A stretch of 4,101 bases of DNA from IMG/VR virus record IMGVR_UViG_2740892439_000015. One strand, 5' to 3'. The notes under the pieces are model-generated. The model saw nothing but the letters and a program-made list of their open reading frames with translations, had not been told where the DNA came from and ran no database searches. The DNA comes from a virus (taxonomy: Duplodnaviria > Heunggongvirae > Uroviricota > Caudoviricetes). Below are positions 68 through 4,101 of this stretch, piece after piece. Position 1 is the stretch's first letter. Every line of letters begins with the position of its first letter. The translations under genes and the position numbers were made by a program.

Positions 68-143
68 TGGTGGCCCCTACCGGATTTGAACCGGTGACCG
101 TGCGATTATGAGTCGCCTGCTCTAACCACTGAGCTAAAGGGCC
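68..143 (-). tRNA. tRNA with CAU anticodon; tRNA-Ile2 (lysidine) type more likely than elongator Met
   Basis: Reverse complement of 68-143 folds as a 76-nt cloverleaf: acceptor GGCCCTT/AGGGGCC (one G.U), D-arm GCTC-AGTGGTTA-GAGC, anticodon arm GGCGA-CTCATAA-TCGCA, T-arm ACCGG-TTCAAAT-CCGGT, discriminator A, encoded CCA (plus-strand TGG at 68-70). The anticodon stem-loop GGCGACTCATAATCGC matches what I recall for enterobacterial tRNA-Ile2 (ileX/ileY class). G1-C72 pairing argues against initiator tRNA. Confidence 0.85.
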
Positions 144-297: not shown

Positions 298-1125
298 TTA
301 TTTCACCGGAACAAACGGAACAGCTGTATTACTGGTCATATACTGCGGTAGCGTTCCGTTCCATTTGTTGATCGCTTCCAACTCCATAACGCCGGGGTTC
401 TGGCGCAGAGCCTCACCGCGTAAACGAATGGCATCAGCTTCAGCCTGGGCTTTTGTGCGAATGGCATCGGCCTGCCCGGCAGCTTCTGCGCGCAGCATGT
501 TGGCTTCTGCTTCGCGTTGCTTGACTTCCTGCTCGCGTTGCAGAGTTTTCTGGTTCGCCGTGACTTTGGCATTAATGCTGTCGATAACGGTTGGCGGGTA
601 CTCCGGCTTGCCCACATATGAGAGGCTCATTACCTGAATACCGATGGGCGTCATTTCTTCCTGGATGTCTTTAAGAGCTGCATCCAGTAGTTCAGACTTG
701 CCACCGTCGATAAATTTGTCGGTGGTCATTTTGCTGGCCAGTCGGTTAAGTGCGTCGGCAATCTTCTGGCGCAGGTCGGTGTCGGTAATGTCATCCACGC
801 CTTTGCGGTAGGTCTGAAATACAGTTGTGACTTTTGCCGGATCAACCTTGTAAGCTACACCAATGTGGTAACCAATTGTTGTCCCGTCGCTCATTTGGAA
901 GCTGAACGGATCATCATAGGTCTTCATTTGCTTAAAGGTAGGGAAGATATAAACTTCTGTGTTCCAGCCTGTCCAGTAGCGACCAACGCCAACTACTTCG
1001 CCGACACCTTTATCATCCCCCAGCTTATTTACTTTGATCCCTACATTGCCTGGTTCTACCCGGTCGCATCCGGTCAGACATAAAGAACCCAAAATAATCG
1101 CTGCACTAATCAACGTTTTTTTCAT
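298..1125 (-). CDS. SPFH/band-7 (prohibitin/stomatin/HflK-C superfamily) lipoprotein, 275 aa
   Basis: Complete ORF in the supplied track. N-terminus MKKTLISAAIILGSLCLTGC is a typical lipoprotein signal peptide with an L-T-G-C lipobox. The central region resembles an SPFH domain, and the C-terminus is Ala/Glu/Gln/Arg-rich and looks coiled-coil (EQEVKQREAEANMLRAEAAGQADAIRTKAQAEADAIRLRGEAL), as in band-7 proteins. Family call is from sequence character and memory, not a search. Confidence 0.85.
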   Translation of the reverse strand: MKKTLISAAIILGSLCLTGCDRVEPGNVGIKVNKLGDDKGVGEVVGVGRYWTGWNTEVYIFPTFKQMKTYDDPFSFQMSDGTTIGYHIGVAYKVDPAKVTTVFQTYRKGVDDITDTDLRQKIADALNRLASKMTTDKFIDGGKSELLDAALKDIQEEMTPIGIQVMSLSYVGKPEYPPTVIDSINAKVTANQKTLQREQEVKQREAEANMLRAEAAGQADAIRTKAQAEADAIRLRGEALRQNPGVMELEAINKWNGTLPQYMTSNTAVPFVPVK

Positions 1126-1492: not shown

Positions 1493-1604
1493 CGCAATGG
1501 TAAGAGCACTTGGCTGGCTGGGCGGCGATGACGCCTGTACGCATTTGGTGATCCGGTTCTGCTTCCGGCATTCGCTTAATTAGCCAAATACTCTTAACGT
1601 TGCG
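1493..1604. repeat. tRNA-3'-end-associated long-stem inverted-repeat element, copy E1 (degenerate)
   Basis: Arms 1493-1513 (CGCAATGGTAAGAGCACTTGG) and 1584-1604 (CCAAATACTCTTAACGTTGCG): 17 Watson-Crick pairs, 1 T.G and 3 mismatches over 21 positions, enclosing 70 nt. The 3' arm ends 1 nt from the CCA end of the Ser-like tRNA (1606). Plus-strand flank GCATTCAC and arm core GGTAAGAGCA are shared with E2/E3. Confidence 0.6.
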
Positions 1605-1605
1605 C

Positions 1606-1692
1606 TGGCGGAGAGTAATGGAATCGAACCATCATCGCTTGCGCAATGGGACGGTTTTCAAGACCGCTTGAGCACCATGCTCCCTACTCTCC
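1606..1692 (-). tRNA. type II (long variable arm) tRNA, anticodon UGA; tRNA-Ser(UGA)-like, atypical D-region
   Basis: Reverse complement is 87 nt: acceptor GGAGAGT/ACTCTCC (7 perfect pairs), anticodon arm GCGGT-CTTGAAA-ACCGT (U33, anticodon TGA, A37), 17-nt variable region containing a 5-bp stem with GCAA tetraloop (ATTGC-GCAA-GCGAT), T-arm GATGG-TTCGATT-CCATT, discriminator G, encoded CCA. The D-region (AGG GAGC-ATGGT-GCTC AA) has 3 nt before the D-stem and a short loop, so function is uncertain. Confidence 0.6.
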
Positions 1693-1826
1693 AGTGATTG
1701 TGGCGACCGGTGCTGATCTCCGGCTTGCGGTTATTTCAGACTCTCACGGGCGTTTAATTGCCCCGCCGAACAGCTCTTTTCCGCAATAGCTGCAATGTCT
1801 TTCGCGCATCAGCCTGCGCATTCACC

Positions 1827-1918
1827 ACAATGTTGAGAACACTGGTTGTTACGCTGCAACGCAACATTTATTCGTAGATTGGGATATGACCCCGTTACGC
1901 CAGTGTTCTCAACGTTGT
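1827..1918. repeat. tRNA-3'-end-associated long-stem inverted-repeat element, copy E2
   Basis: Arms 1827-1845 and 1900-1918 pair over 19 positions with a single T.G (core GTTGAGAACACTGG / CCAGTGTTCTCAAC perfect), enclosing 54 nt. The interior has a hairpin that is U-A/G.U-paired only when read from the minus strand (TTGCG-TTGCAG-CGTAA). The 3' arm abuts the Thr-like pseudo-tRNA 3' end at 1918. Plus-strand flank GCGCATTCAC is shared with E1. Confidence 0.65.
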
Positions 1919-1982
1919 AGTGCCGGTTACGGTTCCGGCCAGGCCTCTTCCTCAACGGGGTGTTCTCCATACGGACTACCGT
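1918..1982 (-). pseudogene. pseudo-tRNA remnant, chimeric: tRNA-Thr-like 3' end joined to tRNA-Tyr-like 5' segment
   Basis: 1918-1932 TAGTGCCGGTTACGG resembles the tRNA-Thr 3' end at 2147-2162 (TGGTGCCGGTTAACGG). 1970-1980 TACGGACTACC resembles the tRNA-Tyr 5' region (TACGGACTAAC, 2298-2308). No acceptor stem or cloverleaf can be formed. Confidence 0.35.
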
Positions 1983-2058
1983 TTATTGGTCGTTCCTGCG
2001 GTTTATGTTGTGAAGCCAGATGCTTATCTTCTGGTTGCTTCTAGGAGCTGCACTTCAT

Positions 2059-2145
2059 CACAACGGTAAGAGCATTTATGGCTCGCATCGCGGGAAAAAG
2101 CCCACGGTAGAGAGTCGAACTCTACAAATGCTCTTACCTGTTGTG
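2059..2145. repeat. tRNA-3'-end-associated long-stem inverted-repeat element, copy E3
   Basis: Arms 2059-2077 (CACAACGGTAAGAGCATTT) and 2126-2145 (AAATGCTCTTACCTGTTGTG) form 19 bp with one bulged T, enclosing 48 nt. The interior has two hairpins on the minus strand: GTAGAG-TTCGACT-CTCTAC (T-arm-like loop) and CGUGGG-CUUUUU-CCCGCG (needs a G.U, so pairs only as minus-strand RNA). The 3' arm ends 1 nt from the tRNA-Thr CCA end (2147). Confidence 0.65.
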
Positions 2146-2146
2146 T

Positions 2147-2222
2147 TGGTGCCGGTTAACGGGATCGAACCGCTGACCATTCGCTTACAAAGCGACTGCT
2201 CTACCAACTGAGCTAAACCGGC
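2147..2222 (-). tRNA. tRNA-Thr (anticodon UGU)
   Basis: Reverse complement is a 76-nt cloverleaf: acceptor GCCGGTT/AACCGGC, D-arm GCTC-AGTTGGTA-GAGC, anticodon arm GTCGC-TTTGTAA-GCGAA (anticodon TGT), variable TGGTC, T-arm AGCGG-TTCGATC-CCGTT, discriminator A, encoded CCA. It differs from the housekeeping E. coli thrU sequence as I recall it. Confidence 0.85.
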
Positions 2223-2226
2223 AATT

Positions 2227-2313
2227 TGGTGGGGAGTGATGGAGTCGAACCACCCGAGTCGCAATGACAGTAGATTTACAGTCTACCCCGCTCCCCCTAC
2301 GGACTAACTCCCC
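2227..2313 (-). tRNA. tRNA-Tyr (anticodon GUA), type II with long variable arm
   Basis: Reverse complement is 87 nt: acceptor GGGGAGT/ACTCCCC, anticodon arm GTAGA-CTGTAAA-TCTAC (anticodon GTA), variable arm TGTCATTGCGACTCG, T-arm GGTGG-TTCGACT-CCATC, discriminator A, encoded CCA. The ACTGTAAATCT and GTCAT segments parallel E. coli tyrT as recalled. Only 4 nt separate it from tRNA-Thr. Confidence 0.8.
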
Positions 2314-2318
2314 TAAAT

Positions 2319-2395
2319 TGGCGATGGTGGGTGGATTCGAACCGCCGACCGACAGCTTAGAAGGCTGCTGCTCTATCCTACTGAGCTACACCATC
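2319..2395 (-). tRNA. tRNA-Arg (anticodon UCU, reads rare AGA codons)
   Basis: Reverse complement is 77 nt: acceptor GATGGTG/CACCATC, D-arm GCTC-AGTAGGATA-GAGC, anticodon arm GCAGC-CTTCTAA-GCTGT (anticodon TCT), variable CGGTC, T-arm GGCGG-TTCGAAT-CCACC (one C/A mismatch), discriminator G, encoded CCA. Same architecture as E. coli argU but divergent sequence. 5-nt spacer to tRNA-Tyr. Confidence 0.8.
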
Positions 2396-2855
2396 ACTTG
2401 CCGGGTACGTCTCCGGCGAGGGCTTCCACCTCCGTATGCTTTTCGGCGCACCGCGCCCTAGCTGCAATTCGGTAACAGGGGATGCACAACCCTGGCTTCC
2501 AGCGTGATTAGCGCCTTCAGCATGACGGGATATACCCGTTACAATAAATTCCCCCAGGATGCCATTAAGCAATGGCTGTTACGCGGGAGGGACGTAACAG
2601 GTAAGGGCGCTGACCAGAAAGACCTGACCCTTCTCATTCATCTGGTTAATCACACCAGCGCCCTTGCCTGTTATGCCTCCCCGTTCCCTAATACACAGAC
2701 GGGGACACTCTGCGGTCGATTTTTTGACGGGGGACGACTCATACCCCGTGGCGTCTGGCTTCTTAGGCCGCTACCATCATCAGATCATCGTTTGCATTTA
2801 CTTTAATGGTCGGTTTCTAAACCGCCGCAAAGTCGCTAACCATGACGAAAACCCT

Positions 2856-2879
2856 AAAAAAGCCCACCCGAAGATGGGC
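2856..2879 (-). terminator. rho-independent terminator (minus strand) with UUCG tetraloop
   Basis: Minus-strand RNA reads GCCCAUC-UUCG-GGUGGGC (7-bp stem, one G.U; stem 2862-2879) followed by UUUUUUAGGGUUUU. Coordinates cover the stem plus the first U-run (2856-2861); the U-rich tract continues to about 2848. On the plus strand the stem is preceded, not followed, by the A/T run, so it is unidirectional. Confidence 0.6.
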
Positions 2880-2898
2880 AAATACGCTACATCTCACA

Positions 2899-2977
2899 CA
2901 AGAAAGAAGCCGACTGCCTGAGCTGGATTCACTTTCAAATGCCCGCTGAAAGGGATCACAAGTCGGCTTCTTTCTTG
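2899..2977. repeat. perfect 17-bp inverted repeat (CAAGAAAGAAGCCGACT / AGTCGGCTTCTTTCTTG) with 45-nt spacer
   Basis: Arms 2899-2915 and 2961-2977 are exact reverse complements. It lies about 20 nt upstream (minus-strand sense) of the terminator at 2856-2879. No credible ORF overlaps it. Confidence 0.6.
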
Positions 2978-3182
2978 ATGCGGCACTCTCTCCGCCCGTC
3001 ACCGCTCTTTCTCGGTTGTCGCGTTTGCCACGCCAGCCATAACGAGGTTTAAAGTCTTTTCACGTTCCCATCACTCGACTGCCGTCTGTGGCTGTTCGTT
3101 GCAGCGGGGGTGCCACCCCCTGGGGATATCCCGGCCTTACCCCATTCTTTCAAGACACAATGCAAGGCCACATCCGCATAGG

Positions 3183-3270
3183 TGCATTACCGCAACATTA
3201 AGGAGACTCAGGCAAAAGGTAACCGCCACAAAAATCCCTATGCCTCCTTAATGTTGAAGATGTGCATTGA
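3183..3270. repeat. perfect 13-bp inverted repeat (CAACATTAAGGAG / CTCCTTAATGTTG, 38-nt spacer) bracketed by direct repeats GTGCATT
   Basis: Arms 3193-3205 and 3244-3256 are exact reverse complements. GTGCATTAC at 3182-3190 and GTGCATTGA at 3262-3270 flank them as direct repeats. Confidence 0.5.
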
Positions 3271-3627
3271 TGATTAGATGCAGCATGTACCGTTACTCTC
3301 TGCCGGACCATCATCAATGAACACCTTAAAAAGACCTTCCGTGGCTCAACATGTATTGTCGTTTACTCCGCAAAGTGCTCTCTCTGAAACCACTTTCCGC
3401 ACTAAACCTGTTGAACTTTGGTCTGCTCGGTGCCAAAGCGTGCTCTTGGTTTACTATACTTTTCTAACACTTTAATTTGTTAATTGCCGGTGGGTAAACA
3501 ATAACCAATAAGTGACTATCAAGCCCAGCAAGCGAAACGTGGGTACCGCCCACCAGCAAGGAAAATTCTATGTTAAGTCATCTTCACAATCAATACATTC
3601 GAATTGTGATTTTAGATTTCTAACACA

Positions 3628-4101
3628 TTATTTCCCGTAAAGATCTTCTACACCCCCATTCTTCTTATCCCATTCGTTCGCCCATACCCGGCAAGCGTCA
3701 ATGATTTCCTGACGACGATCTCCTTGCATGAACGGAATGCTTTCATGGAAACAGCTTGGAATGCAGGCCACACTGAATACAGTATCAAACTCCGTCTGCT
3801 TGATTGCCTCCAGCGTCTCCGGACGCATTTTTAATTCATCGATTGGCGCATCCTTAGAGTCCATAATCCGGCGATATAAGCGCGGAAAATCCGTCTCCAG
3901 GTACGCCATAATTTTATCTGCGAGACATTCGTCTATGTCGGTATTCCAGTCCTTTTCGAAGCCCGGCAGGCGATAGTAAAGCGGCGTTCCCCATACCGAT
4001 GGGATCACATCCATCGTTAACAGGCGATTAGTTCTGATTTGTTGATGGTAATTAGCCGTCAGCAGTGCTTCGCCACGCTGCCCAGTTTCCGCAACCAGGC
4101 C
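3628..4101 (-). CDS. hypothetical protein, C-terminal portion (gene continues beyond window end)
   Basis: Minus-strand ORF with stop at 3628-3630. The track starts it at the Met at 4014, but the same frame stays open through 4101 (my translation of the extension: GLVAETGQRGEALLTANYHQQIRTNRLLT before MDVIPS...), so the true start is probably outside the window. Acidic, soluble-looking sequence with no membrane segment; no family recognised. Confidence 0.65.
   Translation of the reverse strand, partial: GLVAETGQRGEALLTANYHQQIRTNRLLTMDVIPSVWGTPLYYRLPGFEKDWNTDIDECLADKIMAYLETDFPRLYRRIMDSKDAPIDELKMRPETLEAIKQTEFDTVFSVACIPSCFHESIPFMQGDRRQEIIDACRVWANEWDKKNGGVEDLYGK

Follow-up and report, generated by a model that had tools for sequence, protein, structure and literature searches.

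A tRNA module with exchangeable parts in a D6-like, P1-related plasmid prophage of Escherichia coli

The 4,101-nt stretch of tailed-phage DNA analysed here (IMG/VR record IMGVR_UViG_2740892439_000015; below, the window, meaning this whole stretch) carries five co-oriented tRNA genes on its minus strand, bounded by a pmgS-like gene and the lpa/pacAB region. These genes are the tRNA module of a D6-like, P1-related plasmid prophage of Escherichia coli. The module probably serves mainly to supply tRNAs for the codons used in lytic growth, a reading in which transcription, processing, charging and benefit are all predicted from sequence. Across related loci its parts occur in several combinations, and the first gene is best read as a chimera of a resident tRNA scaffold and an imported core.

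The whole window is colinear with D6-like and P1-like plasmid prophages of about 90 kb, and its flanking genes agree with the P1 and D6 tRNA regions in a synteny check. The best match is the 95-kb E. coli plasmid pRHB04-C06_3 (CP058021), with 98.7% identity over 100% of the window, while another E. coli plasmid, NZ_CP027309, is 97% identical at 98% coverage. Phage D6 matches with 95.7% identity over 67% of the window (97.8% over positions 2317-4101 and 85.6% over 1376-2252) and phage P1 with about 90% over 29% (98% over 5-154, 86% over 1804-2252, and 89% over 2317-2882). The plasmid location is read from these relatives. Among the annotated genes of NZ_CP027309 are those for terminase, portal, sheath, tail and tail-fibre proteins, phd/doc, higBA, RepB, ParM, and glnS. 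Both glnS and higBA are family traits of D6-like plasmid prophages, in which Asn, Thr, Ser, and Met tRNA genes have been described (PMC6799933).

The distribution of the locus is narrow. At least 80% of the window is held by only 28 of 5,426 complete E. coli genomes. The tRNA-Arg gene is found in 68 of these genomes and is plasmid-borne in every case; the Ser-like gene is found in 331 (6%), with 334 of its 336 copies on plasmids. In PLSDB, 1,066 of the 1,111 matching plasmids are classed as non-mobilizable; the genera represented are Escherichia, Klebsiella, Salmonella, and Shigella. A conserved core operon is therefore rejected: most of the window is scarce in complete genomes and the Arg and Ser-like genes are all, or nearly all, on plasmids. 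An earlier note on this DNA, made without database searches, had proposed a horizontally acquired array of phage type, and the colinearity with plasmid prophages bears this out.

The array itself is well recognised by prediction tools. ARAGORN calls all five genes, and four of them score above the gathering score of 29 bits of the general Rfam tRNA model (RF00005): the CAU-anticodon tRNA at 68.2, Thr at 67.2, Arg at 64.7, and Tyr at 39.5, with E-values from 1e-13 to 5e-6 for Thr, Arg, and Tyr. The Ser-like gene falls below the threshold of this model. The first three genes are packed as the earlier note had described, with spacers of 5 nt (Arg-Tyr) and 4 nt (Tyr-Thr), and 454 nt separate Thr from Ser. 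All five encode their 3' CCA. The genes had also been called divergent from the housekeeping isoacceptors, and they are, with identities to the E. coli K-12 genes of 76.6% for Thr (thrU), 68.9% for Tyr (tyrU), 68.8% for Arg (argU), and 64.2% for Ser (serT). The accompanying statement that they keep the housekeeping architecture stands only in part: it fails for Ser, whose fold is tRNA-Sec-like and probably 8/4, and for Tyr, which has two extra bases before the D stem. The CAU tRNA is 97.4% identical to P1 trnI, given in the P1 record as an ileX-like Ile2 gene (89% identity to ileX), and its homologue is called tRNA-Ile by PGAP.

The genes carry sequence features that, by the established rules for E. 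coli synthetases, would specify their amino acids. Arg has A20, C35, U36, and G73; Tyr has A73 and a long variable arm; Thr has G1-C72 and C2-G71; and Ser has G73, again with a long variable arm. Arg, Tyr, and Ser have the same anticodon loops as the host tRNAs. Relative to the closest known plasmid the window has one difference in each gene of the compact array, at positions 2155 (Thr), 2293 (Tyr), and 2344 (Arg). The Thr change restores a G5-C68 pair and the Tyr change sits in the D loop; the Arg change is considered below.

The evidence for codon supply comes from a comparison of 107 coding sequences of NZ_CP027309 with 42 coding sequences of K-12. The plasmid-to-host ratios are highest for AGG (7.4), AGA (4.9), AUA (4.7), ACA (2.9), CGA (2.6), and UCA (2.3), which hold ranks 1 to 6 of 61 codons. 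The four codons cognate to Arg-UCU, Ile2, Thr-UGU, and Ser-UGA (AGA, AUA, ACA, and UCA) are all in this top six (P = 2.9e-5), and when the best Tyr codon is added a rank-sum permutation gives P = 1.8e-4. The codon AAU, decoded by the Asn gene that replaces Arg in other loci, holds rank 8 (1.84x). The argument from rare codons put forward in the earlier note is thus supported, since AGA/AGG, AUA, ACA, and UCA are among the six most enriched. In the tail-fibre gene the five served codons add up to 89 per thousand, and two further phage genes have 82-88; the K-12 sample has about 15, and the host-derived glnS of the same plasmid 1.8. These figures support codon supply as the probable main function.

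The steps by which this would work can be laid out. The module would be transcribed from an upstream promoter, probably under repressor control, by analogy with the Asn and Thr genes of P1, which lie downstream of the C1-controlled Pban. Host enzymes would cut the tRNAs from a polycistronic precursor, and because CCA is encoded none need be added. Host synthetases would charge them, as each has known E. coli identity elements. The tRNAs would then raise the supply of decoders for codons that are 2-7 times commoner than in the host (AGA/AGG, AUA, ACA, UCA), and this would prevent stalling in the synthesis of phage proteins during lytic growth, above all of tail and tail-fibre proteins.

Several points weigh against codon supply. 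Tyr codons are barely enriched (UAU 1.29x, UAC 1.14x), so the Tyr cassette is not explained by it. Most horizontally acquired DNA is enriched in rare A/U-rich codons, so a codon match is expected whenever tRNAs follow composition; it is no proof of a fitness benefit. For the host, one 50-kb segment of K-12 served as reference, and the phage-side counts were taken on a 97%-identical plasmid (NZ_CP027309) in place of the window's own replicon. The sole consensus promoter is about 1.2 kb upstream and is separated from the array by a terminator-like hairpin. Finally, the window's Arg allele may be slightly impaired. It has a private U51>C substitution (G in one and A in the other of the window and the closest plasmid at position 2344, G/A) which creates a C.A mismatch in the T stem and lowers the score to 64.7 bits from 72.1 for the common allele. 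This substitution is present in none of the 68 E. coli plasmids with the Arg gene, none of which is 100% identical to the window's gene, nor in any other sequence examined.

The composition of the module differs between related loci. The loci were collected by exact-pattern scans of IMG/VR (57 with the Ser gene, and more from scans with the Arg, Thr type II, and Asn75 arms), and the 80 that had full context were compared. They fall into nine combinations of slot-1 tRNA, Thr type, and presence or absence of Tyr. The most common are Asn75-Tyr with Thr type II (24 loci) and Asn75-Tyr with Thr type I (19 loci), followed by Asn76 with Thr I (10), Asn75 with Thr I (8), Arg77-Tyr with Thr I (7), and Arg77 with Thr I (6). 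The window's own type, Arg77-Tyr with Thr II, is seen in 4 loci, and Arg77 with Thr II and Asn76-Tyr with Thr II in 1 locus each. Tyr is therefore an optional cassette, present in 55 of the 80 loci. The Thr gene occurs with two anticodon arms on the same scaffold: type II in the window (A GUCGC UUUGUAA GCGAA U, with U32, G39, and G41) and type I in P1 and D6 (G CCUGC CUUGUAA GCAGG A). These arms are combined with at least four T-loop versions. In IMG/VR the type II arm is found only on the scaffold of the P1/D6 family; it has a G27.A43 mismatch, and some variants weaken further pairs.

In most relatives slot 1 is an Asn(GUU) gene, while in the window it is Arg. Arg77 and Asn75 share exactly the same first 15 nt and last 32 nt, and with them the acceptor stem, the beginning of the D arm, the T arm, and the CCA end; the D stem matches as well. 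All differences between the two fall within one patch, about 30 nt long, that contains the D loop and the anticodon arm. The Arg patch supplies A20 and the UCU arm. The Arg anticodon arm, AGAGCAGCAGCCTTCTAAGCTGT, recurs in many unrelated phage tRNA-Arg genes with other acceptor stems, whereas for the Asn75 and Thr type II arms no donor outside the P1/D6-family scaffold was found in IMG/VR. Because the Arg arm has outside relatives and the other two do not, the Arg gene is best read as a resident Asn scaffold with an imported Arg core, which would amount to a switch of amino-acid identity in place. Arginyl-tRNA synthetase reads mainly A20 together with the anticodon, and asparaginyl-tRNA synthetase the anticodon together with G73. 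Since the two enzymes read mainly these elements, a switch from Asn to Arg would be tolerable.

Other relatives show losses and rearrangements. Blocks gained or lost in the Thr-Ser spacer give it lengths between 195 and 705 nt, and Thr is lost in some loci. In one locus (L046, 1050-1124) an Asn::Thr fusion gene is present, whose 5' part is Asn75 and whose 3' part is the T stem and acceptor strand of Thr. Its acceptor stem cannot pair, and the fusion was evidently made by a deletion between the shared GGTTCGAATCC T loops. Together with the nine combinations and the modular spacer, this agrees with the description of a dynamic, recombining cassette region in the earlier note. The module probably evolves by recombination at and inside tRNA genes, with the conserved tRNA segments as the homology, and such exchange swaps whole genes (Tyr), anticodon arms (Thr I and II), and amino-acid identity (Asn to Arg).

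The same mosaicism could be neutral recombination noise among functionless tRNA remnants which hitch-hike with the phage. The private substitutions in the window's Arg and Tyr genes, including the C.A mismatch in the T stem of Arg, would fit such decaying cargo, as would the loss of Thr or the Asn::Thr fusion in some relatives and the mismatched and weakened pairs of type II Thr. However, hundreds of plasmids keep the genes with intact cloverleaves and encoded CCA, and compensatory changes are seen in Ser, Thr, and the acceptor stems. The Arg chimera keeps the exact ArgRS identity set (A20, C35, U36, G73), and the set of anticodons fits the phage codon excess far better than chance. Neutral cargo is considered very improbable.

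A role of the tRNA genes as att sites or integrase landing pads, rather than as tRNAs, is the least credible explanation. The region is recombinogenic and tRNA genes are common integration sites, but in the window and in NZ_CP027309 the array has neither an integrase nor an att-like duplication beside it. A tyrosine recombinase is encountered only at a distance of more than 6 kb, and the element persists as a plasmid. Its breakpoints fall within conserved tRNA segments, as in homologous exchange and not as in site-specific insertion. With neither an integrase nor an att structure there, the integration-site reading was rejected.

The Ser-like gene is not a canonical tRNA gene. Position 8 is A, where nearly all tRNAs have U; the D loop is short, the variable arm has 6 bp and ends in a GCAA loop, and position 73 is G. 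Its match to the tRNA-Sec model RF01852 is near the threshold, at 44.6 bits (E 7e-7) with a gathering score of 47, and the NZ_CP027309 allele is above it at 48.0 bits. PGAP annotates the gene as tRNA-OTHER and the D6 record as 'AA not called by tRNAscan-SE'. Identification as tRNA-Sec (selC) was rejected: the anticodon is UGA, which reads UCA (Ser), and not UCA, so this is a serine and not a selenocysteine tRNA. The UGA anticodon is present in all alleles and homologues except a Streptomyces-phage homologue (UAG). Homologues were found in rV5-like, T5-like, and T4-like Klebsiella phages, in phi92, and in Acinetobacter, Aeromonas, and Streptomyces phages. Position 73 is G in the window and U in the Acinetobacter-phage and phi92 homologues.

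RNAalifold folded 13 diverse phage homologues into a consensus whose acceptor stem has 8 bp, its T stem 4 bp, and its variable arm 6 bp. In the resulting cloverleaf 97.7% of cells are paired and 14 of the 27 pairs show compensatory changes, a result reached by 0 of 500 shuffles; slid controls were 37-60% paired. The variable arm has compensatory changes among the homologues, and their D stem is 4-5 bp with a loop of 3-5 nt. The gene fits the tRNA-Sec-like 8/4 class of tRNA-Ser. The members of this class, the (8/4) tRNA-Ser and allo-tRNAs, were found with the tRNA-Sec model, and the class has been reported in bacteriophages (PMC5389517). The window gene has in common with it the near-threshold tRNA-Sec match and the long variable arm, a G at position 73 (two homologues have U73), pairing of position 8, the 4-bp T stem of the consensus fold, and the compact D arm. 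Unlike in that class, the window Ser has a normal anticodon, with no recoding implied, and a D stem of 4-5 bp with a 3-5-nt loop as against 6 bp with a tetraloop. The 8/4 split of the 12-bp acceptor branch is favoured by A8 over U8 but not proven, as the discriminating pairs are invariant: A8-U and the C-G at the base of the variable arm are found in 13/13 homologues, the G.U of the alternative 7/5 fold also in 13/13, and none varies. The covariation run of the 7/5 fold covered only the core that it shares with the 8/4 fold.

Counter-defence is the alternative with the most in its favour, and it is compatible with codon supply. It holds that the tRNAs replace or outnumber host tRNAs destroyed by abortive-infection nucleases, and that the swapping of parts is an arms race. 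The AriB nuclease of PARIS cuts three E. coli tRNAs, those for Lys(UUU), Thr(UGU), and Asn(GUU), at U36AAUC|A41; cleavage is abolished by a change of U39 and inhibited by a change of A41, and the Lys, Thr, and Asn tRNAs of T5 rescue infection from PARIS (PMC12409363). Retron-Eco7 depletes tRNA-Tyr, and extra tRNA-Tyr rescues T5-like phages (PMC11555353). Loci of the P1/D6 family carry exactly such target isoacceptors: Thr(UGU), Asn(GUU) in alternation with Arg, and the optional Tyr, which is the one tRNA without an explanation in codon usage. As in the T5 anti-PARIS and anti-Retron-Eco7 tRNAs, Thr(UGU) and Tyr(GUA) are present, and Asn(GUU) in sister alleles, with positions 39/41 of the AriB site substituted. 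The site reads UAAGCG (G39, G41) in the window Thr, UAAGCA in P1 and D6 Thr, and UAACCA in Asn75, as against UAAUCA in the host. Genes for Tad2 and darB/ulx-like anti-restriction proteins are nearby in annotated relatives.

The substitutions G39 and G41 are weak evidence, however, since any non-orthologous tRNA has an anticodon stem that differs from the host's. Between Thr alleles, T-loop variation is as great as that of the anticodon stem. The cleavable UAAUCA is kept by Asn76 of P1 and D6, so that some P1/D6-family alleles retain the cleavable sequence, and by the Thr of rV5. The anticodon loops of Arg, Tyr, and Ser do not differ from the host's. The array also differs from that of T5 in having no Lys(UUU), the prime target of PARIS and PrrC, and in belonging to a temperate phage. 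Counter-defence is possible but unlikely. A broader proposal would treat the locus as a hot-swappable decoding and counter-defence cassette. The constant acceptor and T-arm scaffolds would act as recombination handles, and anticodon arms, the Tyr gene, and amino-acid identity would be exchanged between phage-plasmids as well as with rV5-like virulent phages. Part of the selection would be due to tRNA-cleaving defences, PARIS and Retron-Eco7 among them, and the 8/4 Ser would be a structural escape variant. This proposal is speculative and is regarded as doubtful. Codon supply for lytic growth remains the preferred reading of the module.

In P1 (NC_005856) the order trnA(Asn)-trnT(Thr)...trnI(Ile2) shares the locus and strand logic of the window. 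Ile2 is the nearly identical gene mentioned above, the Thr scaffold is the same (87% overall), the slot-1 acceptor stem is the same, and the upstream leader is 89% identical up to window position 2882. P1 however has Asn76 in place of Arg, no Tyr, no Ser, and the type I Thr arm. It carries tciABC, upl, and plp in place of the SPFH gene, with ban/dbn downstream, and its C1 operator consensus is absent from the window. D6 (NC_050154) shares the backbone over 2317-4101, a Ser(UGA) gene with one difference, and the same spacer organisation; glnS and higBA, seen in NZ_CP027309, add to the family likeness. D6 and pYU39_89 have Asn-Thr-Ser-Met, whereas the window has Arg-Tyr-Thr(type II)-Ser-Ile2 and the SPFH gene in place of tciA/tciB.

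A second set of likenesses leads to the Vequintavirus rV5, whose array is Arg-Tyr-Ser-(99-nt tRNA-like gene)-Thr-Met-Pro. It opens with a dimer of Arg(UCU) and Tyr 4 nt apart, and it has the same anticodon repertoire of Arg-UCU, Tyr, Ser-UGA, Thr-UGU, and CAU. Tyr is 92% and Ser 90% identical to the window genes, and the similarity at Ser runs about 90 nt beyond the gene, into its 3' flank. These tRNA parts (Tyr; Ser with its flank) are thus common to a temperate lineage of phage-plasmids and to a lineage of virulent myoviruses, the rV5-like phages. rV5 is however a virulent phage of 138 kb and another type. Its Arg and Thr genes are only 69% and 68% identical, with different acceptor stems, its gene order is different, and it has an extra Pro gene along with the 99-nt tRNA-like gene. 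In rV5-like phages (L007 1724-1820 on the minus strand; L040, L043) a tRNA-like gene of 98-99 nt lies between Ser and Thr. ARAGORN gives it a 4-base 'anticodon' and no amino acid, and it scores 35.5 bits with the Rfam tRNA model; the window does not contain it.

The P1 and D6 tRNA genes are already in their records, and arrays of the window's type are already annotated automatically in RefSeq. In the literature searched, no description was found of the Arg/Asn scaffold sharing, the optional Tyr cassette, or the two Thr arms in the P1/D6 family, nor of the rV5 link or the 8/4 classing of the Ser gene. Why phages carry tRNAs is an old question, with codon supply and the replacement of destroyed tRNAs as the two leading answers. 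The locus leaves that picture unchanged. It offers a natural allelic series in which the backbone hardly changes while the same scaffold carries Arg or Asn, Tyr comes and goes, and Thr has one of two arms. Hundreds of sequenced plasmids from E. coli, Salmonella, and Klebsiella sample this series, so simple swaps could separate the two answers. The locus also suggests that a tRNA gene can change its amino-acid identity in place through sub-genic recombination. The tRNA-Sec-like Ser tRNA is common in enterobacterial phage-plasmids, yet it is labelled 'tRNA-OTHER' or reaches the tRNA-Sec threshold.

The positions of the tRNA genes and of the other features of the window are collected in Table 1.

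Table 1. Coordinates of the tRNA genes and neighbouring features in the window
Feature	Position	Strand	Remarks
tRNA-Arg(UCU)	2319..2395	-	77 nt; first gene of the array; ARAGORN, Rfam tRNA model
tRNA-Tyr(GUA)	2227..2313	-	87 nt; long variable arm, A73; ARAGORN, Rfam tRNA model
tRNA-Thr(UGU)	2147..2222	-	76 nt; type II anticodon arm; ARAGORN, Rfam tRNA model
Thr-Ser spacer	1693..2146	-	highly structured, modular; long stem-loops at 1823-1922 and about 2060-2142
tRNA-Ser(UGA)	1606..1692	-	87 nt; non-canonical; ARAGORN, near-threshold match to tRNA-Sec model
Ser 3' flank	1517..1605	-	forms one 180-nt module with Ser, 82.8% identical in rV5
SPFH/Band 7 open reading frame	298..1125	-	275 aa; PF01145, E 7.8e-31; between Ser and Ile2 tRNAs
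CAU-anticodon tRNA, Ile2 (lysidine) type	68..143	-	last tRNA of the module; ARAGORN, Rfam tRNA model
Hairpin and terminator-like region	2855..2985	-	about 470 nt upstream of tRNA-Arg
Candidate control region	3461..3633	-	promoter-like site: -35 at 3593-3588, -10 at 3570-3565

The Thr-Ser spacer is predicted to fold strongly (minimum free energy -166 kcal/mol, z = -6.3). The earlier note had mentioned a pseudo-tRNA remnant. Neither cmscan (E<=10) nor blastn-short with the tRNAs of the array detected one in the spacers, the matches being chance ones of 8-14 nt, and only a T-arm-like hairpin (about 2110-2128) was seen, inside a larger stem-loop. The P1 counterpart of the spacer is the plp open reading frame on the opposite strand, to which window positions 1799-2173 on the plus strand are homologous (L002 7223-7600). 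In P1, plp is annotated as a 'putative lipoprotein'; it is Cys-rich, has a TTG start, and overlaps trnT in antisense. In the window its frame is broken by two in-frame stops and a frameshift, as also in L008. The region is therefore more likely a structured non-coding RNA, and plp may not be a real gene.

Downstream of Ser, at 1376-1496 on the minus strand, a sub-threshold element resembling STnc100, a prophage sRNA (small RNA) family, was detected (39.4 bits with a gathering score of 47, E 2.9e-6). Its 5' motif, UG(C/U)GGUGAAUGCG, is a 27-nt repeat with three copies at 1484-1510, 1817-1843, and 2050-2076, and so recurs inside the Thr-Ser spacer. There may be sRNA-like modules between the tRNAs. 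At the position of the SPFH gene, D6 and P1 have tciA/tciB(/tciC). In the closest annotated plasmid a Tad2 (anti-Thoeris) gene follows the CAU tRNA at a distance of about 450 nt downstream, a little beyond the left end of the window (vicinity coordinates L001 5034-5609 and NZ_CP027309 53766-55427), and in annotated relatives the darB/ulx-like anti-restriction genes are upstream.

About 1.2 kb upstream of Arg is free of long open reading frames. The terminator-like region here consists of a perfect 17-bp hairpin (2899-2977) followed by an intrinsic-terminator-like hairpin, GCCCATCTTCGGGTGGGC, with T6 (2879-2862). The element could be a candidate small RNA or a point of regulated read-through. 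A 'dicF-like region' annotated in P1 overlaps its terminator part, and homology to P1 ends at 2882; cmscan found no Rfam match to DicF in the window at E<=10. Further upstream, the site at 3593-3565 is the only promoter-like one in the window. It is flanked by two copies of a 17-mer, TTTCTAACAC(A/T)TTA(T/A)TT, at 3461-3477 and 3617-3633. In NZ_CP027309 the 17-mer has seven distinct copies (at most 3 mismatches to either version), compared with 0.4 in shuffles, at 11804, 13053, 13209, 23871, 33944, 39574, and 67109. Six of these are between annotated genes or at their very end, and the one at 67109 is inside a coding sequence. The P1 C1 operator consensus has 0 sites within 2 mismatches in the window and in NZ_CP027309. 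By analogy with P1, in which Op72/Pban lies upstream of the tRNA genes, the 17-mers are candidate operators of a D6-type C1 repressor, distinct from the P1 consensus, and the product of the control region would be a repressor-controlled early lytic transcript.

The D6 RefSeq record (NC_050154, L003) departs from the cmscan result in two ways. It has no annotation for a CAU tRNA which cmscan found at 4067-4139 (58.5 bits), and at 5125-5830 three tRNAs are annotated on the strand opposite to that given by cmscan.

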